This document shows, in pieces, positions 18,302-64,000 of a DNA stretch of 64,000 nucleotides. The notes beneath the pieces were generated by a model, which was not told the origin of the DNA, made no database searches, and worked only from the letters and a program-made list of their open reading frames with translations. The position numbers were made by a program, and so were the translations under genes. This DNA is from Vicinamibacteria bacterium (lineage in GTDB: Bacteria > Acidobacteriota > Vicinamibacteria > Vicinamibacterales > UBA8438). Positions within the stretch are counted from its first letter, which is position 1, and every line of letters begins with the position of its first letter. The stretch lies in contig JAJEEU010000101.1 in assembly GCA_022820825.1 (NCBI GenBank), positions 38,682-102,681 of the forward strand, in the 5' to 3' direction.

Positions 18302-18378
18302 TGGTCGGGATGACTGGATTTGAACCAGCGACCCCCTGACCCCCAGTCAGGTGCGCTACCAGACTGCGCCACATCCCG
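18302..18378 (-). tRNA. tRNA-Pro (anticodon GGG), CCA encoded
   Basis: Hand-folded cloverleaf: acceptor CGGGATG/CATCCCG, D stem GCGC/GCGC, anticodon stem CCTGA/TCAGG with loop CTGGGGG (GGG, G37), T arm GCTGG-TTCAAAT-CCAGT, 3' ACCA. Confidence 0.9.
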
Positions 18379-18418
18379 ACGCAAGAAGCTCAAGCAGCAG
18401 GGCTTTCGCCACGAGCTG

Positions 18419-41030: not shown

Positions 41031-41198
41031 GGTGTCAACGTCCGCGGATCGCACCAGAACGACGAAGAAGCCGCGCAGGCCGCGCGCCCCGCTGCCGCGG
41101 CAACGGGGCGGACCGCATGAGGACAAGACGAGGCGGCCGTTCCGGCAGCGCAAGCACAGGCGGCCGGTCGACCGCGAAGCCCCGGAATCGGACTCCTA

Positions 41199-41358
41199 GC
41201 AGTCCGTGGTGAAACCCCGCGTCGCACCGAGAGCGGCGAGGCGCGCGGCTGACAAGGCGCGAAGAGCGAGCATATTCGAAGATATGTGAGCGATGAGCAA
41301 CACAGTCAGGCGTGATGCATCGGCGCTCGAATGCAGCGGGGCTTTTGCCACGGGCTGC
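41199..41358 (+). mobile_element. family B hairpin element (MITE-like or structured RNA), copy B1, 160 bp, TA-flanked
   Basis: It has imperfect ~30-nt terminal inverted repeats, GCAGTCCGTGGTGAAACCCCGCGTCGCA ... TGCAGCGGGGCTTTTGCCACGGGCTGC. TA dinucleotides flank it at 41197-98 and 41359-60. It ends 2 nt from the glpX stop. Confidence 0.6.
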
Positions 41359-41360
41359 TA

Positions 41361-42344
41361 CTAGAAGCGCAGCCCCCGCCGCCGCGCCTGCGCCTTGACG
41401 TGAATCGTGTCGATGAACTGCACGCGGTGCGGGTTCGTCTGCATCACCACGGAGCTAGTGCGGCACCCTTCGCCGAAGAACCGCACACCCTTCATCAACG
41501 CTCCCTCGGTGACGCCTGTCGCCGCGAACGTAATGTTCTCGCCCGAAGCCAGGTCCTCCGCCCGGTAGACCCGGGACGGATCGTCGATGCCCATGGATTC
41601 GGCGCGCGCCCGTTTTTCCGGCGTGTCCAGCACCAGGCGGCCGAATATCTCGCCGCCGAGGCAGCGCATCGCCGCGGCCGCAATCACGCCTTCCGGTGCG
41701 CCGCCGCTGCCCATGACCGCGTGCACGCCGCTGCCGACCACCGCCGCACCGATGGCCGCGGTCAGGTCGCCGTCCGTGATGAGCCGAATCCGCGCGCCGG
41801 CGTCCCGGATCTCGGCGATCAGCCGCTCGTGCCGCTTGCGGTCGAGCACCACGATCACGAGATCCGACACCTCGCGGTCGAGACAGCGCGCAATCTGGTG
41901 CAGGTTGTGGGCTACGGGGGCATCGAGATCGACGGAGCGCTTCGACTGCGCGCCGACGACGAGTTTCTCCATGTAGACGTCGGGCGCGTGCAGCAACCCG
42001 CCCCGCTCCGATGCGGCCAGCACGGCTATGGCCCGCGGCGCGCCGGTGGCGCACAGGTTCGTGCCTTCCAGCGGATCGACTGCAATGTCGATCTCCGGCA
42101 GTCCGTTTTCGCCGTTCGCCCCGCGGCCGACCCGCTCGCCGATGTACAGCATCGGCGCCTTGTCGCGCTCGCCTTCTCCGATGACCACGCGGCCGTCTAT
42201 GGGCACGCTGTCGAGCCGCGCGCGCATCGCCTCCACCGCCACCTGATCGGACCGGTGGCGGTCGCCCTGCCCCATCGTATGGGCGCAGGCTATCGCGGCC
42301 TGCTCGACGACATCGAGGAATGCGTGTGAAAGTTCCGCCTCCAT
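41361..42344 (-). CDS. glpX: fructose-1,6-bisphosphatase class II
   Basis: 327 aa with full-length GlpX-like sequence ([30 protein letters not shown]). The TAG stop is followed in frame by a second TAG supplied by the B1 flank. Confidence 0.92.
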
Positions 42345-42389
42345 GGTGCTCCTCTGCGCCCGGGGACCGTGCGCGCCTCCGTCGGCGCT

Positions 42390-43181
42390 TCACTCCTGCC
42401 GCACGACGACCGCTGCGCCGCGTTCGACGCCCAGCCGGTCGACGGCGCTGCTGGAGCTGGCGGCAAACTCCAGGTGTTCCGTGCCGCCGAAAAGCGCGCA
42501 CACCTCGTCGTCGCCTATCTCCGTGTAGGTCTCGACCAGTCGGCCTATGACGTGCGGTCCCACTTCAATCTGAATCGATCCGCGCTGCGCCACGCTCTCG
42601 AACGCCTTCCGGTCGATGTTCGAGACGACGTTGCCGAAACGATCGATGCGCAACACCTGTCCCACGACGCGATCGTCAGCCAGGTCCGGCACCGGTACGT
42701 CCAGCACGCGGTAGTCACGCAACGGCCGTCCAAGCGCCGACAGTTGCACGCCCTTGGCGATCCAGGCTGCCGCGGGCGCGAAACGGTCGCGTCCCTCGAA
42801 TGTGCGGCTCACCGTGGGCCGGGCATAGCGCCGCTCCGTCAGCTCCACCACGCGCCGCGGCGGCTGCTCGCCCAGGACGGCAGTCAGCACGCCGTTGTCC
42901 GGAGCAACGAAACGGTAGTCGCCGACGTCGGCCGCAACGCCGCGGCGGTCGGAACCGACGCCGGGATCGACCACGACGAGGAATACGCTGCCAACCGGAA
43001 AATAGCGGTAGGCCGCAGCCAGCTCCAATGCCGCGGTGAGCACGTCGTGTGCGGGAATCTCATGGGAGATGTCGACCAGCGTTGCCTCGGGACAAATATT
43101 GAGCACGACGCCCTTCATCGCCCCGACGTAGTGATCGCGGAAGCCGAAGTCACTCAACAATGCAACTACGGGCCGTGCCAT
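42390..43181 (-). CDS. SAM hydroxide adenosyltransferase family protein (DUF62)
   Basis: VALLSDFGFRDHYVGAMKGVVLNICPEATLVDISHEIP...YFPVGSVFLVVVDPGVGSDRR matches the DUF62/SAM-HAT N-domain pattern. Confidence 0.85.
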   Translation of the reverse strand: MARPVVALLSDFGFRDHYVGAMKGVVLNICPEATLVDISHEIPAHDVLTAALELAAAYRYFPVGSVFLVVVDPGVGSDRRGVAADVGDYRFVAPDNGVLTAVLGEQPPRRVVELTERRYARPTVSRTFEGRDRFAPAAAWIAKGVQLSALGRPLRDYRVLDVPVPDLADDRVVGQVLRIDRFGNVVSNIDRKAFESVAQRGSIQIEVGPHVIGRLVETYTEIGDDEVCALFGGTEHLEFAASSSSAVDRLGVERGAAVVVRQE

Positions 43182-43219
43182 TCACCTCCCCCTGCGGCTG
43201 TCCGCCGCATGCTGCAACA

Positions 43220-43888
43220 TCATGCTGCGGCGGTCGCCGGGTTGGCCTTCCGCAACAACACCTCCCGCGTGCGGCTCTTGAGCAGCACGGTCTTGACTGC
43301 TTGCAGCCCCTCGAACAGCACCTCCAGCTCGCGGTGCTTGAGCGGCCGCTCGACGCCCTGCGCGGCATCGTCGCTCCGGTGCACGCAAACCCGGTCCAGG
43401 CCGGCGATCTCGTACACCAGACGCCCCGAAAACGCCCGCTGATCCACGCGCTGGTACAGCAGCAGGACGCCGGCCGGACTCAGCACGCGATAGAGCTCGG
43501 CCGCCAGCGCCCACCGTGCCGCGTCGTCGAGATGATCGAGAACATCCCAGCACAGTACACCGTCGACGCTCTCGTCCGGCTGCGACAGGCGCGGCCGCCA
43601 CGTGTCGTCGTTGCCGCTCGGCCCAGCGGGCCGTTTTCCCAGCAGATCCTCGATGAAGACCTTGCACGCGACTTCCTCACCCAGAAATGTGACGTTCGTT
43701 CCGACGGCGGGACCCAGGTCGAGAACGACAGGCGCGGGCTTCGCCCTGACCGCGGCCACGAAGTCGGACAATACGTGCGTCGTGCGATAGGTTTCCGGGG
43801 GCGGACCCTGTGTTTCGGCGCTCGCGACGGGCGGCGGCCGGCGCCGCAGCCTGGTCGCCAGGGCGCCAAAGTACCCGCTTCGGGTCAT
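43220..43888 (-). CDS. class I SAM-methyltransferase-like protein (degenerate motif I)
   Basis: VVLDLGPAVG (GxGxG degenerated to GPAVG), ...DGVLCWDVLDHL...LSPAGVLLL gives a methyltransferase-fold pattern. Confidence 0.6.
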   Translation of the reverse strand: MTRSGYFGALATRLRRRPPPVASAETQGPPPETYRTTHVLSDFVAAVRAKPAPVVLDLGPAVGTNVTFLGEEVACKVFIEDLLGKRPAGPSGNDDTWRPRLSQPDESVDGVLCWDVLDHLDDAARWALAAELYRVLSPAGVLLLYQRVDQRAFSGRLVYEIAGLDRVCVHRSDDAAQGVERPLKHRELEVLFEGLQAVKTVLLKSRTREVLLRKANPATAAA

Positions 43889-43946
43889 TGGCTTCCTCGC
43901 ATTCGGCGGGCCGAGGCGGCGCGGTATCGAGTACCGGGGGCCTCAG

Positions 43947-44606
43947 CTACGCCTTGCGGACCGGAGCCACTTGAGCGGATGGGGTCTCCTGCTTGGCACT
44001 GCTCCGCGACCGCGCCGCATGCGCCCCGTCGCCGGCGGAGCCGGCTGTGGCTCCCGCACCGGCCGCGCCGGCCGGACTTGCGGAACCGGCCGCACCAGCC
44101 GCTGCTGCCGCAGCCGCCGGCTTTGCGCTCTCCGCGCGCCGCATGTCGATGCTGCCCCTGAAGTGGGCGCCCTCCGCAATTGCCACACGCGGCGAGGATA
44201 TGTCTCCGTCGACCACGCCCTTCTCCTGGATGCTGACCTTCTCGACGGCCGTGACGTTACCCAGAACCTCGCCGATGATGACTACGGTCTTGGCAAATAT
44301 CTGCGCCTTGACCTTGCCGGACTCGCCCACCGTCAGCAGGTTCTGATTCAAATCGATCTTGCCTTCGACGCGCCCTTCGACCCGGAGATCCTCGTTGCCG
44401 CTCAACTCGCCCTTGACGACAATCGACTTGCCGATGCCCACGATGCCGTTGCTATCCTCCATGGCGCCACTCCGATCAGTCTTCCGCACATTGGGCTCGC
44501 GCCCGACTGTCTTTGGGCTGGACACCACGTCTTCCACGGAGTGCCCAGGTCGACTCGGCTGAGGACGCACCGGAATCTCCGGTTCCTCCCGCCTCCACAT
44601 TGCCAT
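43947..44606 (-). CDS. bactofilin (DUF583) cytoskeletal protein
   Basis: The central beta-helical repeat region IVVKGELSGNEDLRVEGRVEGKIDL...VKAQIFAKTVVIIGEVLGNV...GDISSPRVAIAEGAHFRGSIDM has disordered Pro/Ala-rich termini. ATG at 44600 is an alternative start. Confidence 0.85.
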   Translation of the reverse strand: MAMWRREEPEIPVRPQPSRPGHSVEDVVSSPKTVGREPNVRKTDRSGAMEDSNGIVGIGKSIVVKGELSGNEDLRVEGRVEGKIDLNQNLLTVGESGKVKAQIFAKTVVIIGEVLGNVTAVEKVSIQEKGVVDGDISSPRVAIAEGAHFRGSIDMRRAESAKPAAAAAAAGAAGSASPAGAAGAGATAGSAGDGAHAARSRSSAKQETPSAQVAPVRKA

Positions 44607-44676
44607 TTATACCCCCAACGGAACAGCGAACCGAACCGATAGTATACGAGCACTCCCGCGAAGGTGTCTAGGAACG

Positions 44677-45909
44677 GTGCGCCTCGGCGCGACGCCGCCA
44701 GAGGCCCCGTTGCGGGCGCCGGTGGTAAGATCCCCGGAAGTGCGCACATACCTGGACCACAACGCGACCACGCCGCTCGCACCGGCCGTGCTGGAGACGA
44801 TGATCCCGGTTCTGCGCGAGCAGTTCGGCAACGCTTCCAGCGTGCACGTGTTCGGCCAGATGGCCAAGGCCCAGGTCGACGGCGCACGCGCGGCGGTCGC
44901 CGATCTGATCGGCGCCCGGCCCCAGGAAATCGTCTTCGCCAGCGGCGGCACCGAAGCGGACAACCTGGCCATCCGGGGCGTCGCCGAGGCGGCCGCGCCG
45001 GGCCGCAAGCGGCACATCGTGGCGAGCGCCATCGAGCACGAGGCGGTGCTCAAGACCTTGAAGGTGTTGAACCGGCACGGTTGGAAGACGTCGCTGGTTC
45101 CTGTCGCGGAGAACGGCATCGTGGCGCCGGACGCGCTCGAGGCAGCGCTGACCGACGAGACGGTGCTCGTCTCCGTCATGCACGCCAACAACGAGATCGG
45201 CACGGTGCAACCGATCGCGGAGCTGGCCGCCATGGCCCACCGGCGCGGTGCGCTGTTCCACACGGACGCGGTGCAGTCGGCCGGCAAGCTGCCGCTCGCG
45301 GTGGACGAGCTCGGCGTCGACCTGCTGTCGCTTTCCGCGCACAAGCTGAACGGACCGAAGGGCGTCGGGGCGCTGTGGGTGCGTCGCGGCCTGCGGCTGG
45401 TCGCCGGCCAGACCGGCGGCGGGCAGGAACGCAATCGGCGCGCCGGGACCGAGAATGTACCGGGCATCGCCGGGTTCGGGGCCGCGGCCCGGCTCGCGGC
45501 CGAGGCGGCCGGCGCGGGACGGACGGATATCGCCGCCCTGCGCGACCGGCTCGAAACCGGAATTCTCGACGGCGTGCCGGGCACGGTTGTCAACGGCGAC
45601 CGCGAGCGGCGGGTCCCGAACACCACGAACATCAGCTTCGAGGGCGTGGAAGCCGAGTCGCTGCTCATTGCGCTCGACCTCGAGGGAGTGGCGGTCTCCA
45701 CCGGCTCGGCCTGCTCGTCCGGAACGCTCGAGCCGTCTCACGTGCTGCAGGCGATGGGCTGCCCGCCGCACCGCACGCAGAGCTCCATCCGCTTCAGCCT
45801 CGGGCTCGGCAACACGACCGGGCAGATCGACCGCGTCGTCGAGATCATGCCGCGCGTAGTCGGCAAGCTGCGCACGCTGGCGCGGCCGCCGCAAACCGTG
45901 GGAGCCTAG
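44677..45909 (+). CDS. cysteine desulfurase (NifS/IscS class)
   Basis: YLDHNATTP, the SAHKLNGPKG PLP-lysine motif and the SSGSACSS active-site Cys loop are present. Start is GTG 44677 or, giving a more typical N-terminus, GTG 44740. Confidence 0.9.
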   Translation: MRLGATPPEAPLRAPVVRSPEVRTYLDHNATTPLAPAVLETMIPVLREQFGNASSVHVFGQMAKAQVDGARAAVADLIGARPQEIVFASGGTEADNLAIRGVAEAAAPGRKRHIVASAIEHEAVLKTLKVLNRHGWKTSLVPVAENGIVAPDALEAALTDETVLVSVMHANNEIGTVQPIAELAAMAHRRGALFHTDAVQSAGKLPLAVDELGVDLLSLSAHKLNGPKGVGALWVRRGLRLVAGQTGGGQERNRRAGTENVPGIAGFGAAARLAAEAAGAGRTDIAALRDRLETGILDGVPGTVVNGDRERRVPNTTNISFEGVEAESLLIALDLEGVAVSTGSACSSGTLEPSHVLQAMGCPPHRTQSSIRFSLGLGNTTGQIDRVVEIMPRVVGKLRTLARPPQTVGA

Positions 45910-45922
45910 CAGGACTCCGGGC

Positions 45923-46984
45923 ATGCGTATCGTCGCAGCGATGTCGGGCGGCGTCGATTCGTCCGTCGCCGCGGCGCTCCTCGCCGAGGCGGGCCACGAG
46001 GTCGTCGGGCTTTCGATGCAGCTCTACGACCAGCGCGGGGATGAGACGCGCTTCGGTAGCTGCTGCACCCTCGACGACCTGCACGACGCGCGCCGCGTGG
46101 CGGCGGTGCTGGACATACCCCACTACATCATGAACTTCGAGCGGCAGTTCGACGACCACGTGGTCTCGAACTTCGTGCGCGACTACATGGCCGCCCGCAC
46201 GCCGATTCCGTGCGTCCGCTGCAACGGCGACCTGAAGTTCGCCACGCTGCTCGACCGCGCCCGGGGGCTGGATGCGCCCGTGGTGGCGACAGGCCACTAC
46301 GCCCGTGTCGAGCAGGCGGCCGACGGCACGCATCTGCTCAAGCGCGGCGTCGACGCCGACAAGGATCAGTCGTATTTCCTGTTCACGCTGACCCAGCCGC
46401 AACTCGCCGGCGCGCGCTTTCCCCTCGGGGCGCTGCGCAAGCCGGAGGTCCGCGCCTACGCGGCGGCGCGCGCCCTGCCGGTCGCGGACAAGCCCGACAG
46501 CCATGAGATTTGCTTCGTGCCCGACGGCGACTACGCGGCCTTCGTCGAGCGGCGCACGCCGCAGGCGGTTTCGCCGGGCCGCATCGTCGACGGCGCCGGG
46601 CGCACGCTTGGACACCACGACGGCGTCCACCGGTTCACGGTCGGACAACGCAAGGGACTCGGCCTGTCCAGCCACCTGCCGCTGTACGTCACGGCGCTCG
46701 ACGCCGCGTCCGGACGCGTAACCGTCGGCCCGCGCCAGGCGCTGGAGCGGTCGACCCTTTCCGCGTCCGCGGTGAACTGGATTGCCGGCTCGCCGCCCGC
46801 CGCACCCATCCGCGCGACCGCCCGGATCAGGTACCGGCACCGGGAGGCCGCCGCATGCATTACCCCGTTGGGCGACGACGCGGCGCGGGTGGAATTCGAC
46901 GAGCCGCAGGCTGCAATTGCTCCCGGTCAGGCCGTCGTCTTCTACCGGGGGGACACCGTGCTGGGCGGCGGCTGGATCGACTAG
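45923..46984 (+). CDS. mnmA: tRNA 2-thiouridine(34) synthase
   Basis: [17 protein letters not shown] (PP-loop) and full-length MnmA-like sequence. Stop TAG at 46982-46984 overlaps the trxB stop on the other strand. Confidence 0.93.
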
Positions 46985-47973
46985 CCGGGGGTTTGGGGCG
47001 CAGCCCCATCTAACGATGCCGCCTCTGTCGCGTCCTCGGCTGCGGCGTCGGTTTCCGGCAGGCTCTCGAGATAGCGCTCGGCGTCGATCGCCGCCATGCA
47101 GCCGGACCCGGCCGCGGTGATCGCCTGCCGGTACACGTGATCCTGGACGTCTCCCGCCGCGAACACGCCGGGGACGCTCGTGCGCGCACCGCCGCGCGGA
47201 ACGATGTAGCCGTTGGCGTCCAGCTCCATCTGTCCCTTGAACAGGCCGGTGTTGGGTGTGTGGCCGATCGCCACGAACACCCCCTCCACGGCCAGCGTCC
47301 TGAGCGCGCCCGTCTTCAGGTTCCGCAGCGCAACGCCGGTGACGACGCCCTTCTCCGTGTCGGTTATGTCATCGACGACGGCGTCCCACTCGAACGAGAT
47401 CTTCGGGTTCCTGAACGCCTTGTCCTGCATGATCTTCGACGCGCGCAGCGTGTCGCGGCGGTGCACCACGGTGACGTGCGAGGCAAACTTGGTGAGGAAC
47501 GTAGCCTCTTCCATGGCGGAATCGCCGCCGCCGACGACGGCAATCGGCTTGCCGCGGAAAAAATAGCCGTCGCAGGTCGCGCAAGTCGACACGCCGTGCC
47601 CCATCAGGGTGCGCTCGGACGGCAGCCCCAGCAGCCTTGCCGACGCACCGGTGGCGATGATGAGGGTGCGGCCGCGATACGCCGTGTCGCTCGTGGTCAC
47701 GACGAACGGCGGCCGGCCGAGCTTCACCCCGGTGACGTCGCCGGTCACGAACTCCGTGCCGAACCGCTCCGCCTGGGCCCGCATCTCGGCCATCAGATCG
47801 GGACCCATGATGCCGTCGCGAAACCCCGGATAGTTCTCGACGGCAGTCGTCAGCATCAGTTGGCCGCCCGACTCCAGGCCCTCGATCAACAGCGGGTTCA
47901 GATTGGCGCGGGCGGCGTACAGCGCGGCGGTCAGTCCCGCCGGGCCGGAGCCGATGATGATGACCTGGCGCAT
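46981..47973 (-). CDS. trxB: thioredoxin-disulfide reductase
   Basis: [23 protein letters not shown], the redox-active CATCDG, and [10 protein letters not shown] are present. ATG at 47971-47973; the GTG at 48015 used by the track lies inside element B2. Confidence 0.93.
46985..47012 (-). repeat. family A repeat fragment A4 (5' hairpin only)
   Basis: Read on the minus strand, TAGATGGGGCTGCGCCCCAAACCCCCGG carries hairpin 1 plus the C-run. It shares the TAGATGGGGC variant 5' end with A2 and lies inside the last 9 codons of trxB. Confidence 0.6.
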
Positions 47974-47986
47974 CGCGGGCGGGTTA

Positions 47987-48146
47987 GCAGTCCGTGGCGA
48001 AACCCCGCGTCGCACCGAGAGCGGCGAGGCGCGCGGCTGGCAAGGCGCGAGAAGCGAGCATATTCAACCATATGTGAGCGACGAGCAACACAGTCAGGCG
48101 TGATGCATCGTCGCTCGAATGCAGCGGGGCCTTCGCCACGGGCTGC
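47987..48146 (+). mobile_element. family B hairpin element, copy B2, 160 bp, TA-flanked
   Basis: About 93% identical to B1 by hand alignment. TA dinucleotides sit at 47985-86 and 47147+1000 equivalent 48147-48. Its last C plus the flanking TA form the TAG stop of the S11 peptidase gene. Its other end is 13 nt from the trxB ATG. Confidence 0.6.
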
Positions 48147-49072
48147 TAATCCGCGGGACTGATCGCGGGCGGGTCGAGCGCGGCGCCGTGCTCGGACACC
48201 CAGTCGGCCAGCCTGCGGACCTCCCCGAAACGGCGCGCGTTCGACCCTGCGCCCAGGACCACAATGGACAGCGGGTCGCGGTCCGGCAGCTTCACGACCG
48301 TGGCCAGACAGTAGCCGGAGGCATTGATGTAGCCGGTCTTGCCGCCGTGGATGAGGAGCCGGCCGCGCAGCAGATCGTTGGTGCTGCGCACCCTCAGGCG
48401 GCGGCGGCTGGTCTCCAGGTTGTGCGACCGCTTGCGCATGATCGTCGAAATGACGGGCCGCCGGGTCGCCTCCGCGATCAACCGCGATACGTCGTAGGCC
48501 GTCGACACGTTGCCGCTGTCGAGTCCGGACGGCTCGGTGAACGCGGTGCCGCGAAGTCCCATCGCGGCTGCCGTGGCATTCATCTGCTCGACGAACCCGC
48601 GGGTGCCCCACGGCGACACCCGCGCCAGGAGGCGGGCGGCGGTGTTGTCCGAGGCCACCAGGGCCAGGTGCAGGACGTCGTACAGCGCTACCCGCTCTCC
48701 CCGCCGCAAATAGGTGGTCGACGCGCGGCGCACGTCGCGGCGGGACACCACGACGTCGGCATCCAGGTCGGGCTGCTGCTCCAGGAATACGAGCGCCGTC
48801 ATCACCTTCGTGATGCTGGCGATCGGGCGAGGGCTGAGGCTGTTCGACTCCCAGAGGATCTCGTGGCTGGCCGGGTCGTAGACAACGGCCGCCTCCGCGC
48901 GGAGGCGCGGCGCAGGCAACCCGGCGGTGTCCAGCGTGCGCGGGGGATCATGCGCGGGGTCGGGGCCGACAGCGGGTGGCGGGACGGCCGCGGCCCCGCC
49001 GGCGTGCGGGGCAAGGCCGACCGTGCCCGACCACAGCAGCAGGATTCCACAGATCGCGGCGAATCGCGCCAT
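48146..49072 (-). CDS. D-alanyl-D-alanine carboxypeptidase/endopeptidase (peptidase S11, class C PBP)
   Basis: A signal peptide is present, with SITK (SxxK), SDN (SxN) and KTG motifs in the correct order. ATG at 49070-49072; the track ORF is over-extended. Confidence 0.82.
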   Translation of the reverse strand: MARFAAICGILLLWSGTVGLAPHAGGAAAVPPPAVGPDPAHDPPRTLDTAGLPAPRLRAEAAVVYDPASHEILWESNSLSPRPIASITKVMTALVFLEQQPDLDADVVVSRRDVRRASTTYLRRGERVALYDVLHLALVASDNTAARLLARVSPWGTRGFVEQMNATAAAMGLRGTAFTEPSGLDSGNVSTAYDVSRLIAEATRRPVISTIMRKRSHNLETSRRRLRVRSTNDLLRGRLLIHGGKTGYINASGYCLATVVKLPDRDPLSIVVLGAGSNARRFGEVRRLADWVSEHGAALDPPAISPAD

Positions 49073-49074
49073 CG

Positions 49075-50457: not shown

Positions 50458-50468
50458 GATAGCTCTGC

Positions 50469-50497
50469 ATTATATGCAAACAGGCCGCGCGCTACAA
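50469..50497 (-). promoter_or_regulatory. sigma70-like promoter for the VWFA gene (near-leaderless)
   Basis: On the minus strand: TTGTAG (50497-50492), 17-nt spacer, TATAAT (50474-50469). Only 11 nt separate the -10 box from the ATG at 50457. Confidence 0.5.
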
Positions 50498-51502: not shown

Positions 51503-51537
51503 GGCGGGACCAATGCTGAATGCTACTATTCCGGCCC

Positions 51538-51984: not shown

Positions 51985-51989
51985 CCGGG

Positions 51990-53306: not shown

Positions 53307-53317
53307 GGACCGTGCCG

Positions 53318-54481: not shown

Positions 54482-54483
54482 GG

Positions 54484-56176: not shown

Positions 56177-56232
56177 CCGACTTGAAAGTATATGGGCGAG
56201 GCGGCGAAGTGGCGAAATGGTGAAGTACGGAA

Positions 56233-56354
56233 GGGGACGGCGAGCAGCGAGCGGCCGTCCCCAAGCCGCGCACAGCGCGGCCCGGCGGCAGCGGCGCGGG
56301 GCTATGGGGTCCCCGCTAGCAGCCGCCGGGGGTTTGGGGCGAAGCCCCAAGTAA
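56233..56354 (-). repeat. family A structured intergenic repeat, copy A5 (inverted orientation)
   Basis: Its reverse complement aligns with A1 along its whole length (about 90% by eye), including GGGGACGGC...GCCGTCCCC. It lies in the divergent region between the hypothetical gene and hemE. Confidence 0.85.
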
Positions 56355-56373
56355 CAGATGTACTATAGGTCGA

Positions 56374-57399
56374 GTGAACGACACCTTCCTGCGCGCCTGC
56401 CGGCGCGAGCCGACCGACACCACGCCCGTCTGGTTCATGCGTCAGGCCGGCCGCTACATGGCGGAATACCGGGCCATCCGCGCGCACCATTCGCTGCTTG
56501 AAATCTGCCGGCAGCCGGAGCTGGCCGCGGAGGTCACGTTGCAGCCCGTCAACCGCATCGAGGTCGACGCCGCCATCCTGTTCTCGGACCTGCTGCTGCC
56601 GCTCGAGCCATTGGGCATACCGTTCGACTTCGTCAAGGGAGAGGGCCCCGCAATCGAGCGCCCCGTCCGCTGCGCCGCCGACGTGGGCCGGCTGCGGCCG
56701 TTCGAGCCGCGCGAGGAGCTGGAGCACGTCCTGCTGACGATACGGCTGGTGCGCCGCGAGCTGGAAGGCCGGGTGCCGCTGATCGGCTTCGCCGGCGCGC
56801 CGTTCACCCTGGCGTCGTACGCCATAGAGGGCGGCGCGTCGCGCGCCTTCGCACTGACCAAGGGCCTCATGTACAGCGAGCCGGAGGTGTGGCACGAGTT
56901 GTGCGAGCTGCTCGCCGACGTCGTCGCGGACTATCTCCTGGCGCAGATCGAGGCGGGCGCGCAGGCCGTGCAGCTCTTCGATTCCTGGGTCGGCGCACTC
57001 TCCGACCGTGACTACCGCGAGTTCGCCCTGCCGCATACGAAGCGGATCATGGACGCCGTGGCGGACGCGGGCGTACCGGTGATTCACTTCGGCACCGGCA
57101 CGGCCACCCTGCTGGAAGCGATGGCGGAGGCGGGCGGCGATGTGGTAGGCGTCGACTGGCGCGTGCCGCTCGACGAGGCCTGGGAGCGCATCGGCGCGGA
57201 CAGGGCCGTGCAGGGCAATCTCGATCCGACGCTGCTGCTGGGTCCGGTCCACCGGCTGCTCGACGGGGCCGATGCGGTGCTGCAGCAGGCCGGCGGACGT
57301 CCCGGACACATCTTCAATCTCGGGCACGGCATCCTGCCGGAGACACCGGTCGAGCACGTACAGGCGCTGGCCCGCTTCGTCCACGCCCGCAGTGCCTAG
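56374..57399 (+). CDS. hemE: uroporphyrinogen decarboxylase
   Basis: NDTFLRACRREPTDTTPVWFMRQAGRYMAEYR is the canonical HemE N-terminus (341 aa). The GTG start lies 7 nt after a TACTAT hexamer. Confidence 0.93.
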   Translation: MNDTFLRACRREPTDTTPVWFMRQAGRYMAEYRAIRAHHSLLEICRQPELAAEVTLQPVNRIEVDAAILFSDLLLPLEPLGIPFDFVKGEGPAIERPVRCAADVGRLRPFEPREELEHVLLTIRLVRRELEGRVPLIGFAGAPFTLASYAIEGGASRAFALTKGLMYSEPEVWHELCELLADVVADYLLAQIEAGAQAVQLFDSWVGALSDRDYREFALPHTKRIMDAVADAGVPVIHFGTGTATLLEAMAEAGGDVVGVDWRVPLDEAWERIGADRAVQGNLDPTLLLGPVHRLLDGADAVLQQAGGRPGHIFNLGHGILPETPVEHVQALARFVHARSA

Positions 57400-58780
57400 C
57401 CCTACCGTCGACGTCAGCGTAGCGGTCGTGGGCGGCGGCATCAGCGGACTGGCCGCCGCGTACGAGCTCCAGGCACGGAAAGTCCGGCACGTCGTGCTGG
57501 AGCGTGCGCCCCGCGTCGGGGGCGTGATCCGCACCGACCAGGTGGACGGATTCACCCTCGACGGCGGCCCCGACGCCCTCCTCGTGCAGAAACCGGCCGC
57601 CGTCGAGCTGTGCCGCGAGCTGGGCCTCGGCGACCGGCTCGTGCCGACGCTGCCGCCGCGCACCGCCTTCGTGCTGCGCGCGGGGCGGCTGCACCCGCTG
57701 CCGGCGCACTCGGTGCTGGGCATTCCCACCCGCGTCCGGCCGCTGGCGGCGACGCGGCTGCTCTCCGCGGCCGGCAGGATCCGCATGGCCGCGGACCTGG
57801 TGCTGCCGGCCGGCGCGCCGGGAGCGCGGGGCGACGAATCCGTAGCGTCGTTCTTCGCGCGCCGGTTCGGTCAGGAGACGGTCGACTACATCGCGGAGCC
57901 GCTGCTCGCGGGCATCCATGCCGGCCACGTCGAGCGGCTTTCCATCCGCGCCCTGTTCCCGCGGCTCGTCGAGGCCGAACGTACGCACGGCAGCATCATC
58001 CGTGCGCTGGCGGCGCGGCGGCGCCGGGCGCCGGCGCCCGGCGGCCCGTTCCGCTCGTTGCGGGGCGGCGTCGGGGAGCTGGTCATGGCGCTCGCCGGCA
58101 GGCTTGCGCCGGACGTCCTGCGCACCGGCGCCGGCGTGCGCGAAATCCGCGGTCGCGCTCCGTACCGGTTGCTGCTGGATACCGGCGCCAGCGTTACCGC
58201 CGGCCAGGTCGTGCTGGCGGTGCCCGGCCCCGCCGTCGCGGCACTGCTGCGCCCGCTCGACCCGGAGCTCGCCGAGCAGTGCGGCAGCATCCCGCACACC
58301 TCCACCGCCACCGTGGCGCTCGGCTATCCGCGCGATGCAATCGGCCACGATCTCCGCGGCACGGGATTCGTGGTGCCGCGCGTCGAACGCGGTGTGTCGG
58401 TGATGGCCGGGACGTGGGTCTCGTCGAAATGGCCCGGCCGCGCCCCGCCCGGACAGGCGCTGCTGCGCGGGTTCGTGGGCGGCGCGCGCGACGGCTCGGC
58501 GCTCGACCGCACCGACGCGGAACTGGTGGCTGCCGTGCACCGCGACTTCACGCAACTGCTCGACATCTCCGGGACGCCTTCACTCGCGCGCGTCTACCGC
58601 TGGCCCGGGCTGAATCCACAGTACGAGGTCGGCCACCTCGAGCGGCTGGCCGCCATCGACGCCGGTCTCGAGCGGCTTCCCGGCGTGCAGATCACCGGCG
58701 CCGGATTCCGCGGCGTCGGCATCCCCGACTGCATCGCCGCGGGCCGCGCCGCCGGCGCGGCCGCAAGTCGCGCGGCCTGA
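57392..58780 (+). CDS. hemY: protoporphyrinogen/coproporphyrinogen III oxidase (HemY/CgoX type, FAD)
   Basis: VAVVGGGISGLAAAYEL...GGVIRT...GFTLDGGPD are present, with a C-terminal FRGVGIPDCI. GTG at 57392 overlaps the hemE stop; the track ORF is over-extended. Confidence 0.85.
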   Translation: MPSPTVDVSVAVVGGGISGLAAAYELQARKVRHVVLERAPRVGGVIRTDQVDGFTLDGGPDALLVQKPAAVELCRELGLGDRLVPTLPPRTAFVLRAGRLHPLPAHSVLGIPTRVRPLAATRLLSAAGRIRMAADLVLPAGAPGARGDESVASFFARRFGQETVDYIAEPLLAGIHAGHVERLSIRALFPRLVEAERTHGSIIRALAARRRRAPAPGGPFRSLRGGVGELVMALAGRLAPDVLRTGAGVREIRGRAPYRLLLDTGASVTAGQVVLAVPGPAVAALLRPLDPELAEQCGSIPHTSTATVALGYPRDAIGHDLRGTGFVVPRVERGVSVMAGTWVSSKWPGRAPPGQALLRGFVGGARDGSALDRTDAELVAAVHRDFTQLLDISGTPSLARVYRWPGLNPQYEVGHLERLAAIDAGLERLPGVQITGAGFRGVGIPDCIAAGRAAGAAASRAA

Positions 58781-58859
58781 CCGGCACCGTGGTATATTGG
58801 CGTTTGCAAGGTTTTTGAATACCGGTTCTCATCACCCTCGATACACACAGGAGTCCCCC

Positions 58860-59501
58860 ATGACGCGCAAGAATCTCTCGTTCCTCACCCTGCTTTCCGG
58901 ACTGGTATTCCTGGTCGCATGCGGCGGCGGGATGCCGGAGGAAGCGGCTGAAGAACCGATGCCCGAGGCGGCGCCGGCCGAGCCGGAACCGGCTCCGGTG
59001 GCGTCGTCGACGCCGGAAATGGTGGGCGGCGGCAAGGCGATGGAAGTCCACCCCGGGCAGGGCGGCAGCCCGCACGTCCAGGTCGACTGGATGGTGAACG
59101 ACGCCAACATCTCCATCACCTACGGCCGCCCCTACCTCAGGGACCGCGTCGTCGGCGAGAGCGTCGAGCCGATGCCGACGGGCGTGTGGCGGCTGGGTGC
59201 GGACGAGGCGACCACGCTCGTCACCGACAAGGACCTGATGCTCGGCGACGCCCACATTCCCGCCGGCGAGTACACCCTCTGGGCCGGGAACATGGGCGGC
59301 GAGTTCCACCTGATCGTGAACGGCCAGACCGGCCAGTGGGGCACGCAGTACGACTCCGGCCAGGACGTGGCGCACATCACGATGGAGACCGGGGAGCTGG
59401 ATCCACCGGCCGACCAGTTGACCCTGTCGGTCACGAGCGACGCGTTCAGCTTCGACTGGGGTCAGATGACGGCGTCCGTGCCCCTCACGGTGCACGACTA
59501 G
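58860..59501 (+). CDS. DUF2911-like lipoprotein
   Basis: ATG at 58860 follows ACAGGAG. The lipobox is FLVACG. ITYGRPYLRDRVV...VWRLGADEATTL...LGDAHIPAGEYTLW resembles the DUF2911 pattern. Confidence 0.72.
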   Translation: MTRKNLSFLTLLSGLVFLVACGGGMPEEAAEEPMPEAAPAEPEPAPVASSTPEMVGGGKAMEVHPGQGGSPHVQVDWMVNDANISITYGRPYLRDRVVGESVEPMPTGVWRLGADEATTLVTDKDLMLGDAHIPAGEYTLWAGNMGGEFHLIVNGQTGQWGTQYDSGQDVAHITMETGELDPPADQLTLSVTSDAFSFDWGQMTASVPLTVHD

Positions 59502-59510
59502 CAGCGTTCC

Positions 59511-61628
59511 GTGACGACCCGCGCCGCGCTGGTACCGGTCTGGCGCGGGGCCGTGCTCGCCACCGCACTGGTGCTCGGCGCGCCGTCCCCGCAACTGCCC
59601 GCGCAGCGCGCATCCGGACCGGCAGTCGACGACGCGGCGCTCGCCGACGAACCGTCCGGCGCGCACTGGCTCGCATTCGGCCGCACCTACAGCGAGCAGC
59701 GGTTCAGCCCGCTCGCCCGGATCGACACGTCCACCGTGGGCAATCTTGCGGTGGACTGGTTTCTCGACCTGCCGGGCGAGCGGGGCCTCGTCTCCACTCC
59801 TCTCGTCGTTGATGGCGTCCTGTACTTCATCGGCAGCATGAACATCGTGCGCGCGGTGAATGCCGCGTCCGGCGCGCTGCTGTGGGAATACGACCCCGAG
59901 GTGGCCGTGCACGCCGGCCGCCGCATGCGCGCCGGCTGGGATCACAGCCGGGGCATCGCATTCTGGAACGACGCGGTCTACGTCGCCACGTGGGACGGCC
60001 GCCTGAACGCGGTCGACGCCGCCACCGGTCGCGAGCTGTGGAGCACCATGACGATCGAGCCGGAGGACAACTTCTACATCACCGGCGCGCCCAAGGTGTT
60101 CAAGGGCAAGGTGCTGGTGGGCAACGGCGGCACGGAGAACGGCGCGGCGCGCGGCTACGTGACGGCGTACGACGCGGAAACCGGCGAGCAGGCGTGGCGC
60201 TTCCACATCGTGCCGGGCAACCCCGCCGACGGGTTCGAGAACGAGGCGATGGCCATGGCGGCCGAGACCTGGACGGGCGAGTGGTGGAAGCATGGCGGCG
60301 GGGGCAACGCGTGGCACGGGTTCACCTACGATCCCGAGCTCGACACGCTGTACATCGGCACCGGCAACGGATCGCCCTGGAACCGGAAGATCCGCAGCCC
60401 GGGCGGCGGCGACAACCTCTTCCTCTGCTCCATAGTCGCGCTGGATCCCGACACCGGCGAGTACCGCTGGCACTACCAGACCACGCCGGGCGAGACGTGG
60501 GACTACAACTCCAACATGGACATCGTGCTGGCCGACCTGAACATCGACGGCCGCGCGGTGAAGGCGCTGATGCACGCGCCGAAGAACGGCTTCTTCTACG
60601 TGATCGACCGCGCGAACGGCGAGCTCGTCTCGGCCGCGCCGTTCACGGAGACCACCTGGGCGACGTCCGTCGACCCGGCGAGCGGGCGGCCGGTGGAGGT
60701 GCCGGGCGCACGCTACGAGAACGGCCCGGCCTTTGTTTCACCGGGTCCGATCGGCGGCCACAACTGGCATGCCATGTCGTACAACCCGGCCACCGGCCTG
60801 GCGTACTTCCCCGCCATACATCTCTCCTACCGCTTTTCCGACGAGAGCATCGATCTCGACGCCTGGCGTTCCCCGCTGCGCGGAACCGGCACGGGCGTCC
60901 GCACGACCCGGCTCGGCTCGTCGCGTCCGGACGGTGTGCTCGGATCATTGCAGGCCTGGGATCCGGTGCGCCAGCGGCGCGCATGGGAAGTCCCGCTGGA
61001 CGGCATGTGGCATGCGGGTACGTTGACGACGGCCGGCAACCTGGTGTTCCAGGGCAGCGCTACCGGCGAGCTCGCCGCCTACGACGCGGAAACCGGTGCG
61101 GTGCTCTGGCGCTTCCGCGTGGGATCCGGCATCTCCGCGCCGCCGATCACCTACGCCGTCGACGGCCGCCAGTACCTGGCGCTGCTGGTCGGCTGGGGCG
61201 GCGCCTACGCCGGCGTCGGCGGGCGGATCTCGGCGGACCAGGGCTGGGCCTACGGCGTGCATCCGCGGCGGCTGATCGCGTTCTCCCTGGAGGGCGCGGC
61301 CAGTCTGCCGCCATCGCCGCCGCCGCGCGTCCCGGCGCCTCTGGAGGCGCCGCACTTCGAGGTCGACGCCGGCCTGGCGCGGCAGGGCGCCCTGGAGTTC
61401 GGCGGCGTGTGCAGCTCGTGCCACGGCGGCGGAGCCGTATCGTCGGGCATGGCGCCCGACCTCAGGGCCTCGGGACTGGTCCTGTCGGCAGGCGCGTTCG
61501 CCAACATCGTGCGCGACGGACGCACCGAGCGGGGCATGCCCGACTACCCGGAGCTGACGGACCAGCAACTCACCGCGCTACGGCACTACATCCGCCAGCA
61601 GGCGGAACTCGAACTGGCCGGCCGCTAG
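59511..61628 (+). CDS. PQQ-dependent quinohemoprotein dehydrogenase (alcohol-dehydrogenase type II architecture)
   Basis: 705 aa with a signal peptide, an eight-bladed PQQ propeller pattern (W-docking repeats, ...ETWDYNSNMD...) and a C-terminal cytochrome c domain with CSSCHG. Confidence 0.88.
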   Translation: MTTRAALVPVWRGAVLATALVLGAPSPQLPAQRASGPAVDDAALADEPSGAHWLAFGRTYSEQRFSPLARIDTSTVGNLAVDWFLDLPGERGLVSTPLVVDGVLYFIGSMNIVRAVNAASGALLWEYDPEVAVHAGRRMRAGWDHSRGIAFWNDAVYVATWDGRLNAVDAATGRELWSTMTIEPEDNFYITGAPKVFKGKVLVGNGGTENGAARGYVTAYDAETGEQAWRFHIVPGNPADGFENEAMAMAAETWTGEWWKHGGGGNAWHGFTYDPELDTLYIGTGNGSPWNRKIRSPGGGDNLFLCSIVALDPDTGEYRWHYQTTPGETWDYNSNMDIVLADLNIDGRAVKALMHAPKNGFFYVIDRANGELVSAAPFTETTWATSVDPASGRPVEVPGARYENGPAFVSPGPIGGHNWHAMSYNPATGLAYFPAIHLSYRFSDESIDLDAWRSPLRGTGTGVRTTRLGSSRPDGVLGSLQAWDPVRQRRAWEVPLDGMWHAGTLTTAGNLVFQGSATGELAAYDAETGAVLWRFRVGSGISAPPITYAVDGRQYLALLVGWGGAYAGVGGRISADQGWAYGVHPRRLIAFSLEGAASLPPSPPPRVPAPLEAPHFEVDAGLARQGALEFGGVCSSCHGGGAVSSGMAPDLRASGLVLSAGAFANIVRDGRTERGMPDYPELTDQQLTALRHYIRQQAELELAGR

Positions 61629-61650
61629 GAACGGGACCGATCGGGACCCC

Positions 61651-62592
61651 CTACGGCGCGGCGGTGTTGCTCAGCGCAGCCCGGCCGGAGACGTGCCGCC
61701 CCAGGAACTCCTGGATGGCCGCATAGCTGCGCACCATTTCCTCCTGGCTGAAGCCGCCGTGACCGCCTCCCGGTATGGTGATCAGCCGGTTCGGCACGCC
61801 CTTCCCTTCCAGCCCTTCATGCAGCCGTATGGCCTGCGTGTGGGGAATTCGGGGATCCTCGTCGCCGTGGATCGTGATGATGGCCGGGAGCCCTTCACGC
61901 ACATAGGTCAATGGCGAGAGGAACTGCGCCAGCTCCCGGCGGTCGGGGTTGCTCCCGAACCAGCGCACCGTGCCCGGCCTGGAGTGCGGTCCTTCCAGGC
62001 GCTCCAGCACATCGGTGATGCCGTACCAGTTGACGATGCCGGCCACCTCGATCGGCGCGCCCGGACACTGCCGGTCGAGACCCGTCGAGCTCGGGATCAT
62101 GCCGGCGGCGAGCGCCAGGTGGCCGCCAGCGGAGTTGCCGGTCAGCACGAGCCGGCTCGTGTCGATGCCGTAGTCCTCGCCGTTCTCGATCACCCAGCGC
62201 ACTGCGCACAGGCAGTCCTCCACGGCCGCGGGGGCATGCGCCATGGGCGCCAGCCGGTACTCGACGTTGACGACGGCCCAGCCCATCTCCAGGTACGGCA
62301 GCAGCGTCAGGAAGCTCGCCTCCTTGCTGCCGAAAACGTGCGCGCCGCCATGGAAGTAGATGAACGCCGGATGCGGACCCTCGCTCCGTGGAACGTAGAC
62401 GTCCAGCTTGCCTTCCCACCCGTTGGCGGTGAGGTACGTGACATTCGGAACCGACCGGACCGTGCGGCCGACGCCGATCGCCCACTCCGCCGTTTCCGAC
62501 AACTGGGCGTGGGCGACCGGCGGGACCAGACCTGCGGCGAGGCCCGCAACAACGCTCACCGCCAGCAAACGACTCAGCCGGTTGGCAGCCAT
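61651..62592 (-). CDS. secreted alpha/beta hydrolase (esterase/lipase type)
   Basis: A signal peptide (MAANRLSRLLAVSVVAGLAAG...AHA), an oxyanion HGG (IYFHGGAH), a GNSAGGHLA nucleophile elbow and HGDEDPRIP are present. ATG at 62590-62592 with an AAAGGA RBS. Confidence 0.8.
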   Translation of the reverse strand: MAANRLSRLLAVSVVAGLAAGLVPPVAHAQLSETAEWAIGVGRTVRSVPNVTYLTANGWEGKLDVYVPRSEGPHPAFIYFHGGAHVFGSKEASFLTLLPYLEMGWAVVNVEYRLAPMAHAPAAVEDCLCAVRWVIENGEDYGIDTSRLVLTGNSAGGHLALAAGMIPSSTGLDRQCPGAPIEVAGIVNWYGITDVLERLEGPHSRPGTVRWFGSNPDRRELAQFLSPLTYVREGLPAIITIHGDEDPRIPHTQAIRLHEGLEGKGVPNRLITIPGGGHGGFSQEEMVRSYAAIQEFLGRHVSGRAALSNTAAP

Positions 62593-62715
62593 GGGATGTC
62601 CTTTCTCCATGCGCCCCATCATACGCCTCCCGGGGGCCGGCCGCCAGATCCGCGTCCGCGGGTCGGGACGCCGGGCATCTCGACGCTATAATCGGAACAG
62701 CGGAGGAGGTTGCCC

Positions 62716-63210
62716 GTGTTGAAGATGGTCCTGAAGATTGCCGCCGGCGCCGTTGCGCTCGCCTTGGCGTTCGGCTTCGGCTGGGTGGGCTCAAGCTTGA
62801 CGGGAATAGGCCGCGAAGCGCCCGTGGAGTCGCTGACGGATCTCGAACGCGACTTCGCCGCGCGGATGGAGAATGTCGTGCTGACCGGCCACTTCACCAT
62901 CGAAGGCGAGGAACGGCGCGACGGCGTTCCCGAGCGCTACGAGATCGCGCGGGCGACCAAGCTCGACGGCAACCTCTGGCGCTTCGAGGCGCGCGTCAAG
63001 TACGGCAACACGGACGTGACGCTGCCGATGGTGCTGCCCGTCGAGTGGGCCGGCGACACCCCGCTGGTCAGCATCACCGACTTCACGATTCCAGGCCTCG
63101 GCGACGAGTTCGGCGCGCGGGTGGTCTTCTACGACGAGCGCTACGCCGGCACCTGGGACCACGGGCCGTACGGCGGCATGATGTACGGCACCATCGCGCC
63201 GATGGACTGA
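62716..63210 (+). CDS. membrane-anchored hypothetical protein
   Basis: GGAGGAGG lies 6 nt upstream of the GTG at 62716, and TATAAT sits at 62687-62692. A single N-terminal TM helix is present. I recognise no family. Confidence 0.55.
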   Translation: MLKMVLKIAAGAVALALAFGFGWVGSSLTGIGREAPVESLTDLERDFAARMENVVLTGHFTIEGEERRDGVPERYEIARATKLDGNLWRFEARVKYGNTDVTLPMVLPVEWAGDTPLVSITDFTIPGLGDEFGARVVFYDERYAGTWDHGPYGGMMYGTIAPMD

Positions 63211-63222
63211 CCGCCGCCCGGC

Positions 63223-63238
63223 GCCTCCTTCCGGAGGC
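63223..63238. terminator. short GC hairpin between convergent genes (possible bidirectional terminator)
   Basis: GCCTCC-TTCC-GGAGGC has a 6-bp stem and lies between the stop at 63210 and the osmC stop at 63246. There is no clear U-tract. Confidence 0.25.
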
Positions 63239-63245
63239 CGGACTC

Positions 63246-63671
63246 CTACGACTCCAGAACGGCGTCCAGCGTGATCTCGGCGTTCAGCAGCTTCGAGATC
63301 GGGCAGCCCGCCTTCGCGTTGCCGGCCGCCGTATCGAACGCCGCCTGGTCCGCGCCCGGAACCCTGGCCGAGCAGTCGAGGTGCACCTTCGTAACGGCGA
63401 AGCCGCCCTCGACCTGCGCCAGCGTTACCGTCGCCGTCGTGCTCACGTGATCCGGCGTGAATCCGGCGCCACCGAGCTGCGCGGAAAGCGCCATCGAGAA
63501 GCAGCCCGCGTGCGCCGCGGCGATCAACTCCTCCGGATTCGTCCCCGGACGCCCCTCGAACCGCGTGGCGAACGTGTACGCCGCCGACGAGAGCACGCCG
63601 CTCGCGCTCGAGATCTCTCCGCTGCCGTCCTTGAGGCTGCCCTTCCAGACGGCGGATGCCTTGCTGTCCAT
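63246..63671 (-). CDS. osmC: OsmC-family peroxiredoxin
   Basis: 141 aa. AVWKGSLKDGSGEIS..., both conserved Cys residues (AAHAGCFSMAL, AKAGCPISKLL). ATG at 63669-63671 with a GAGAGGA RBS. Confidence 0.88.
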   Translation of the reverse strand: MDSKASAVWKGSLKDGSGEISSASGVLSSAAYTFATRFEGRPGTNPEELIAAAHAGCFSMALSAQLGGAGFTPDHVSTTATVTLAQVEGGFAVTKVHLDCSARVPGADQAAFDTAAGNAKAGCPISKLLNAEITLDAVLES

Positions 63672-63886
63672 GTTGCTGAATTCCTCTCGTTGACCGCCGG
63701 ACCCGGCCGGGGTCCCGCGCCGGCCGCTACCACCAGGACCGCGCCCGGCCGACCGGTGCCGGACGCGCGACAAACTCTAGATCGCCCGGCGGCGGCGTGG
63801 CAAATGCGGGCGACGGCGTTCGACGCGCCTGCGCGGCCCGGACCGCGGGAGCTGCGCTTCACCGGCGAGAGGCAGCCGTTGCGCCA

Positions 63887-63978
63887 GCAGCCCGTGGTGA
63901 AAGTCCCGCGTTGCACCGAGACCGTTCAGGCGGGATGCATGGACGGTCGAATGCAGCGGGACTTTTGCCACGGGCTGC
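63887..63978 (+). mobile_element. family B hairpin element, copy B3, 92-bp internally shortened variant
   Basis: GCAGCCCGTGGTGAAAGTCCCGCGTTGCACCGAG-ACCGT-TCAGGCGGGATGCATGG-ACGGT-CGAATGCAGCGGGACTTTTGCCACGGGCTGC. TA follows at 63979-80 and CA sits on the left. It lacks ~68 nt of the B1/B2 interior. Confidence 0.6.
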
Positions 63979-64000
63979 TATACTCGCGTGTTCGAGGTCC

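Follow-up and report, generated by a model that had tools for sequence, protein, structure and literature searches.

A 64,000-nt stretch of contig JAJEEU010000101.1 from a Vicinamibacteria bacterium, referred to here as the window, carries copies of a repeat termed family B. Judged from its sequence, family B is very probably a transposable element of the miniature inverted-repeat kind (MITE), moved via ends that serve the DDE transposase of an insertion sequence (IS), 1.46-1.49 kb long and resembling IS1182 and IS5, as recognition sites. As far as the literature searched and Rfam show, the family was previously undescribed. The window holds two full-length copies of 160 nt on the plus strand, B1 (41199-41358) and B2 (47987-48146), and an internally deleted plus-strand copy of 92 nt, B3 (63887-63978). 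TA flanks B1 (41197-41198 and 41359-41360) and B2 (47985-47986 and 48147-48148) on both sides, and B3 has CA on the left (63885-63886) and TA on the right (63979-63980). An initial annotation of the window had described these three same-orientation copies and their flanks correctly. It had missed a fourth piece, a solo right end of 26 nt at 18394-18419 on the plus strand (GCAGCAGGGCTTTCGCCACGAGCTGC), which is followed by TA and matched positions 136-165 of the family profile (nhmmer E = 9.2e-05). Beyond these four, the profile search of the window found nothing.

The partner IS was reached by an all-against-all comparison of loci. Locus L076 contains a family B copy, then TA, then a 1463-bp IS at positions 3996-5458 with TA on both sides. 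The left end of this IS reads GCAGCCCGTGGTGAAAGTCCCC and its right end ...CAGCCCCTTCTGCCACGGGCTGC, also written as GCAGCCCGTGGTGAAAGTC... and ...GCCACGGGCTGC. Elements of this kind were 1463-1486 bp long with a single open reading frame (ORF) of 456-466 aa. Besides the L076 element, a P0016-type variant (85% identical to it) was present in identical form on five contigs and a P0006-type variant (89%), again in identical form, on two. The termini common to IS and MITE are GCAGYCCGTGGT...CCACGGRCTGC, and ends of 12-21 nt together with the flanks are shared with the MITE in L076, L114-L118 and L119-L120. Seven distinct IS insertion sites, L076 included, all had the form cTA-GCAG(C/T)CCGTGGT...CCACGG(A/G)CTGC-TAg, with hyphens at the element boundaries. 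In L076, L114 and L118, the IS and a MITE copy abut across a single TA, and the chromosome of the L076 metagenome-assembled genome (MAG) also carries at least 20 MITE copies. The likeness extends to B1. Its left terminal inverted repeat (IRL-like; 41199-41220, plus strand, GCAGTCCGTGGTGAAACCCCGC) supplies the 5' arm of the outer helix and agrees with the left ends of the IS in L076 (GCAGCCCGTGGTGAAAGTC) and in L114-L118 (GCAGCCCGTGGTAAAAGTC). Its right terminal inverted repeat (IRR-like; 41336-41358, plus strand, ...GCGGGGCTTTTGCCACGGGCTGC), the 3' arm, matches the L076 IS right end ...CTTCTGCCACGGGCTGC. In general, the left end of the MITE is like that of the IS (GTGGTGAAAG), and the two are also alike at their right ends (complement GTGGCA[A/G]AAG). 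The better-folding strand of the MITE, described below, therefore corresponds to the IS strand that carries the transposase reading frame.

The L076 ORF encodes a protein of 456 aa with DUF772 and DDE_Tnp_1 domains. Its best NCBIfam match was IS1182 (NF033551, 1.9e-48, 165.6 bits), followed by IS5, and the other matches were to ISNCY only. The curated IS1182 cut-off of 270 bits was not reached, so that the transposase is related to this family and not a member by the NCBI rule. The 120 homologues listed were all at least 81% identical, with 8000 candidates below 1e-10. The nearest annotated relatives were 51-53% identical. One of them, at 51% on plasmid pLB1, is annotated as IS5 family, has ends of a similar style (ACAGGCCG...GCGCTGC) and is flanked by cTA...TAa. 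The partner IS is thus like the IS1182 and IS5 families in its DUF772 and DDE_Tnp_1 domains, single ORF and short inverted repeats, and differs from them in its score and in its distance from annotated members. A further difference is found in the P0016-type copies (L114-L118, gene at 1501-2901, IS end at 2898), whose transposase ORF lacks an internal stop codon, continues across the right inverted repeat and terminates at a TAG made of the flanking TA and the next target base G. The protein length therefore depends on the insertion site.

The transposase also bears on the origin that had been proposed for the repeat. The initial annotation had likened the TA flanks to those of MITEs derived from IS630/Tc1-mariner elements. 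TA within CTAG is the classic IS630 target, and Stowaway-like MITEs share the CTAG preference and the probable TA duplication with family B. TA duplication is not specific to IS630. The transposase family differs. The IS with these ends encodes a DUF772/DDE_Tnp_1 protein, related best to IS1182 and then to IS5, without an IS630-type domain match, and no IS630-like gene stood beside any B-type end (GCAGCCCGTGG) in the loci inspected. A Stowaway-like derivation is highly improbable on these grounds.

End pairs more than 1 kb apart were also checked for a transposase inside. Only two such pairs were found and neither held one. The pair in L054 consists of two short elements around an ordinary gene, and the pair in L103, on a Myxococcota contig, is a chance match within coding sequence. 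A second, different IS was located exactly at the TA beside a B-type end in all three places where it was seen (L076:5461-7503, L107:5231-7262 and L005:1298-2215). Its ends are GCCCGACTTCGCCAACT, and its transposase, 582 aa long, belongs to the IS1634 family (NF033559, 299 bits). Both ends could be read in L076, and TA was present on both sides there. This second IS may prefer the CTAG that B-type ends recreate.

A search for more copies in related MAGs, as the initial annotation had suggested, revealed a large family. Species-representative genomes were scanned with the right-end pattern, and at least 113 stretches were obtained. Initially, 105 end pairs were found. After removal of duplicate-strand and spurious pairs, 94 copies were kept from these genome loci (at least 113) and the window. 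The modal length was 160 nt, held exactly by 55 of the 105 end pairs, within a range of 61-385 nt. Three kinds of length variant occurred: copies of 171-173 nt, most of them in Palauibacter, forms of 61-70 nt reduced to the hairpin, and longer forms with nested foreign repeats. Hosts among the Acidobacteriota were MAGs of Vicinamibacterales, Bryobacterales and Terriglobia. Other host MAGs belonged to Candidatus Palauibacter (Gemmatimonadota) and to Candidatus Rariloculus and further Gammaproteobacteria, and several of the host MAGs were complete chromosomes. Species epithets such as irciniicola and poriticola, together with the literature (PMC10469786) and general knowledge, point to sponge or coral hosts for many of them. 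A scan of metagenomes yielded 92 further stretches with 67 full-length profile matches (L133-L224, from IMG and whole-genome shotgun contigs). In this independent set, 31 of 50 copies measured 160 nt. Some of the metagenome identifiers presumably denote soil and open-ocean projects. Family B may not be limited to host-associated bacteria.

Copies within one genome were 90-99% identical to each other. Copies from Gammaproteobacteria and Vicinamibacterales shared 85-89% identity, and one Terriglobia copy was 92.5% identical to a Vicinamibacterales copy. Among the copies compared, the window copies were closest to one in the Vicinamibacterales MAG CBDBMV01, with 97.5% identity. Identities of 85-92% between phyla in non-coding DNA indicate horizontal spread followed by amplification inside each genome. 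A vector was not identified: B1 had no blastn match in plasmid and phage records, and the pattern scan of viral contigs gave 0 matches.

Several unusual copies were recorded. In L027, two full-length copies (4206-4365 and 4367-4526) stand in tandem, are 98% identical and are separated by a single A; the second begins with GTAG, not GCAG. Longer variants with nested repeats were present at L004:5431-5732, L079:6158-6542, L003:1901-2162 and L011:4537-4770. The nested sequences are tandem units of about 20 nt resembling GAATTCAGCGGGGAAGCGCA and a GGGGCAACCCTTGTGGTTGCCCC hairpin, and they look like separate small repeat families. The hairpin-only forms (L054:2682-2744, L054:1403-1472 and L006:331-391) hardly exceed two terminal repeats, and the two in L054 bracket an ordinary gene. 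An indel between L026:3223-3286 and L057:3183-4067, two regions of 98% identity with 62 nt and 884 nt, respectively, concerned a gene remnant unrelated to family B and looks like gene decay.

The insertion target was derived from the flanks of the 94 copies. The left flank showed C in 87%, T in 79% and A in 78%, and the right flank T in 81%, A in 84% and G in 69%. TA was present on both sides in 47 of the 94 copies, and 30 of the 50 metagenome copies were flanked by CTA...TAG. The first G of the element was kept in about 95% of copies regardless of the base after the right TA, and the flanks of B2 are T-TA...TA-A. In the simplest reading of these sequences, the target would be the TA of CTAG, with the TA duplicated. 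A duplication of 2 bp is most parsimonious for the MITE, and 3 or 4 bp are possible for the IS copies. In trapping experiments, relatives are reported to duplicate 2 bp in the IS5/IS427 group or 4 bp in the case of the IS1182 member ISPse1 (PMC3281130, Table 2).

Empty sites were found for both full-length window copies. B2 is missing at the junction of the peptidase_S11 and trxB genes in the relatives L125-L130, where gene order is kept and TrxB is 92-96% identical. There, the peptidase_S11 stop (TGA) and the trxB ATG are only 11-12 nt apart. The junction reads gcggatTA[B2]TAacccgcccgcgATG in the window and gcggatTGAacccgaccgcgATG in L125. B1 is missing between glpX and the Sua5-like gene in L126. 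Their absence at these junctions marks both copies as lineage-specific insertions. Exact-protein matches of the window genes came from the same strain only, with the elements present; the window corresponds to ENA scaffold KELL22-1_SAMN22237343 scaffold_279. The MITE interpretation offered by the initial annotation agrees with these absences, with an autonomous IS of matching termini and with the TA/CTAG flanks. Its proposed look at empty sites for a TA duplication gave a mixed outcome: both elements are absent from relatives, and the duplication at B2 is consistent with TA but not clean because the ortholog has TGA there.

Family B lies almost entirely between genes. Only one of the 94 copies (L098) overlapped the rough gene calls. 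In 29 of the 94, a neighbouring gene shares its stop codon with the element, the codon being composed of the flanking TA and the terminal base. B2 and the fragment at 18394 are among them. The loci had 67% G+C, with TA at 1.4% and CTAG at 0.047% of positions. At this base composition TA is rare, which makes stop codons a main source of targets. Relative to flanking genes, orientation was unbiased, with 27 co-directional, 21 antisense, 19 convergent and 17 divergent placements. A cis-acting 3'-untranslated-region role tied to gene direction, which had been the second option of the initial annotation in the form of a structured 3'-UTR or intergenic RNA, was rejected on this basis. A canonical terminator was likewise rejected, as no U-tract is present 3' of the stem. 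Orientation was also unbiased relative to local GC skew, agreeing with it in 49 of 94 copies, and no two-armed pattern was visible along four chromosomes. The missing skew bias argues against lagging-strand targeting.

The window copies lie far outside chance expectation, as none of 100 shuffles reached 10 matches to the end pattern. Each folds into one long, stable hairpin. Folding energies were -90.8, -93.8 and -69.3 kcal/mol for B1, B2 and B3, with z-scores against shuffles of -7.2, -6.7 and -10.9, respectively. For the opposite strand of B1, the fold is far less stable (-67.6 kcal/mol). A structure alignment (A2) was built from 59 distinct copies of 159-161 nt. Its consensus is a single hairpin of 52 pairs in which 97.4% of cells are standard pairs. 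The outer helix comprises 19 pairs with 98.7% of cells paired, and the corresponding stem in the window copies has about 19-22 pairs. Changes on both sides were observed in 26 of the 52 pairs, and in 12 of the 19 pairs of the middle helix. Cells with changes on both sides numbered 207, compared with 13-20 when the partners were slid by 1-3 columns, and none of 500 shuffles reached any of the observed measures. All four Watson-Crick combinations occurred at some pairs; column pair 40-135, for example, was CG in 22, GC in 20, UA in 10 and AU in 5 copies. The covariation is a sign that the fold is selected; whether the molecule is RNA or DNA is not implied by it. In the inner helix, covarying Watson-Crick pairs alternate with three conserved GA-dinucleotide pairs at mirrored positions. 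These mirrored dinucleotides would form three tandem G·A/A·G steps.

In B1, the middle helix (41231-41328, plus strand), formed by 41231-41253 and 41305-41328, has the strongest covariation of the element. The inner helix (41256-41301, plus strand) is closed by an A/T-rich apical stem-loop (CATAT...ATATG). A promoter-like match, CTGACA-16-CATATT (41249-41276, plus strand), starts inside the hairpin and is probably incidental. It has no counterpart in B2, and some subfamilies of the 59-copy alignment do not retain its second hexamer. B3 corresponds to a deletion of alignment columns ~46-115 that ends within the short direct repeat YCAGGCG, and its nhmmer match covers model positions 3-40 and 108-165 only.

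The conserved structure proposed by the initial annotation is borne out by the covariation, and several of its details required revision. The C-to-T change in B3 is compensatory as claimed, and columns 21-150 hold CG in 48 copies and UA in 10. Among the paired differences listed between B1 and B2, those at columns 15-156 and 16-155 were verified; both are wobbles in B1 and Watson-Crick pairs in B2. The supposed pairing of GAGCGATG with CATCGGCGCTC was incorrect. The partner of CATCGGCGCTC is GAGCGGCGAGG on the 5' side, and Watson-Crick pairs in alternation with putative G·A steps join GAGCGATGAGC to GAAGAGCGAGC. The segment TCAGGCGKGATGCAT, which had been described as a conserved apical loop, makes up the 3' strand of the middle helix in full-length copies. 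It is apical in B3 only because columns ~46-115 are lost there. GACCGT/ACGGTC in B3, described as a different helix, is this same covarying middle helix. The initial annotation had not recognised the repeat as a named family, and Rfam gave no match. A gathering-threshold Rfam scan of the whole window returned only tRNA, and an E-value scan of B1 returned only chance matches (sR19 with 15.7 bits and RAGATH-4 with 13.1 bits). In the literature searched on the end sequence, on MITEs of sponge symbionts and on IS1182 with CTAG, no description of family B was found. An integron attC site was also considered and dropped, as the GTTRRRY core is missing and cassettes would not be spaced 6.8 and 15.9 kb apart.

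Template switching is an established mutational mechanism at quasi-palindromes. By copying one arm onto the other during replication, it could have produced compensatory changes without selection, and the near-perfect palindrome and the frequent double changes fit such a process. It would, however, remove the bulges, the G·U pairs and the G·A steps, all of which are kept across phyla. Nor would a one-strand preference for G·U over A·C be expected from it. On the aligned strand, G·U was found in 248 cells of 33 pair columns and A·C in 14 cells of 11. Unselected origin of the double changes is thus improbable. Strand-biased deamination was rejected as a source of the G·U excess, because unpaired columns had similar rates of C>T (3.0 per column) and G>A (2.5 per column). 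The same strand folded better in 88 of the 94 copies and in 42 of the 50 independent metagenome copies. Selection therefore seems to act on one of the two strands in single-stranded form.

This strand preference would also suit REPIN-like elements, doublets of repetitive extragenic palindromic sequences spread by a domesticated RAYT transposase (Y1/HUH) acting on single-stranded hairpins. Family B shares with REPINs the intergenic position, the high copy number and a long hairpin with strand-specific pairing. It differs from them in its TA flanks and in the existence of a DDE IS whose ends and flanks it shares, and a replication-strand bias is missing, given the 49 of 94 copies that agree with GC skew. 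REPIN-RAYT pairs are vertically inherited, unlike the spread of family B between phyla at 85-92% identity. No RAYT gene was noticed in the loci inspected, among which no systematic RAYT search was made. A REPIN-like origin is very improbable.

A further alternative is that the MITE was additionally co-opted and functions in its own right as a structured nucleic acid, either RNA or single-stranded DNA from one strand. Such a molecule might offer the G·A steps to a protein as a binding site, use its IS-end sequences to dampen the parent transposase, or terminate or stabilise transcripts. Several features agree with this: the strong covariation extends through the interior, which a transposase need not recognise, and the length is fixed at 160 nt across phyla. 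The mirrored GA dinucleotides, the G·U excess that is not accompanied by a C>T excess in unpaired columns and the agreement of most copies in which strand folds better point in the same direction. On the other side, the orientation of copies follows neither genes nor GC skew, so that read-through would yield either strand. The one promoter-like sequence lies partly within the hairpin, where it begins, and lacks conservation, and the element lacks the U-tract of a canonical terminator. One part of the wobble signal, that at columns 15-156 and 16-155, is inherited from a difference between the IS ends (TG vs CA). Taken together, co-option is considered rather unlikely. The same low weight is given to the more specific proposal that the 160-nt hairpin is a functional single-stranded molecule from one strand, moved between phyla by transposition. 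In its favour are the three conserved tandem G·A steps, the covarying Watson-Crick pairs and the tolerance of G·U on one strand. The molecule could then be an RNA that binds a protein or one that keeps the parent transposase in check via the shared IS-end sequences. If this were true, the element would be more than a selfish MITE.

Mobilisation of family B by the IS transposase also has points against it. The link rests on the shared ends, and the interiors of IS and MITE have nothing in common, so that the MITE did not arise by simple deletion from the IS copies found here. No transposase is present within the 64-kb window, which means that the partner IS is not placed in this particular genome. 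All seven IS sites also fit a 4-bp duplication (CTAG + CAG...CTG + CTAG), and at the empty site of B2, TGA stands in place of the expected single TA. Cut-and-paste transposition of double-stranded DNA by a DDE enzyme offers no obvious reason for the excess of G·U pairs, nor for the conserved G·A steps.

On the most probable reading, family B is a MITE that depends on this IS. An element of 160 nt is too short to encode a transposase. The enzyme of an IS living in the same kinds of genomes would act on it through the shared ends of about 20 nt. Insertion would occur into TA, preferably that of CTAG, and duplicate the TA. With TA rare and concentrated in stop codons, many copies would land in or just after stops. 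The element begins with G and ends with C, and a TAG stop would be rebuilt on either strand, leaving the insertion harmless to the gene. Each insertion would also recreate CTAG on both sides, which would explain the tandem or nested copies in L027, L076, L114 and L118. The whole element would fold as one long imperfect hairpin kept by selection. Most likely, the folded single strand, occurring in read-through RNA or transiently as single-stranded DNA, must be compact and inert or bind a protein. Horizontal spread between phyla would have been followed by amplification within genomes.

The neighbours of B1, B2 and the solo right end in the window are as follows. B1 lies between the stop of a glpX-type fructose-1,6-bisphosphatase gene (41361-42344, minus strand) and the start of a Sua5/YciO/YrdC gene (40359-41030, minus strand). 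B2 lies between the stop of the peptidase_S11 gene (48146-49072, minus strand) and the start of trxB (46981-47973, minus strand). The TAG stop of the peptidase_S11 gene is composed of the flanking TA and the complement of the last C of B2. The solo right end is located between tRNA-Pro(GGG) (18305-18378, minus strand), 15 nt away, and the stop of a minus-strand ORF (18419-18898). This ORF ends on a TAG formed by the last base of the solo right end and the TA (18394-18421).

Several known repeats resemble family B. Correia elements of Neisseria (CREE/NEMIS) are 100-160 bp long, with terminal inverted repeats of about 25 bp and TA flanks. They are intergenic and numerous, occur in internally deleted short forms and give transcripts able to fold as a long hairpin. 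Size class, terminal repeats, TA flanks, intergenic multicopy habit, short forms and hairpin are thus common to both. Family B has no sequence similarity to Correia elements and resides in other phyla. It also differs in having a matching autonomous IS and in forming, over its whole length, one hairpin with strong covariation and G·A steps. The ERIC/IRU and YPAL repeats of enterobacteria are imperfect intergenic palindromes of about 127-170 bp that are thought to act as RNA hairpins with an orientation-dependent effect. They share the intergenic palindromic form with family B and show no sequence similarity to it. To our knowledge, ERIC has no partner transposase. Unlike ERIC, family B has one, as well as a cross-phylum range.

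For annotation, the identification provides a name and a mechanism for a repeat that many uncultured bacteria carry, whether marine, host-associated or from other environments. Without it, family B would go unannotated or pass for an RNA gene. The pair of IS and MITE marks recent DNA exchange among Acidobacteriota, Gemmatimonadota and Gammaproteobacteria. The element also points to a transposon strategy in a G+C-rich genome, in which the rare TA of stop codons is targeted and the stop is restored by the first base of the element. The strand-specific, conserved hairpin offers a test case for the question why bacterial MITEs retain secondary structure.

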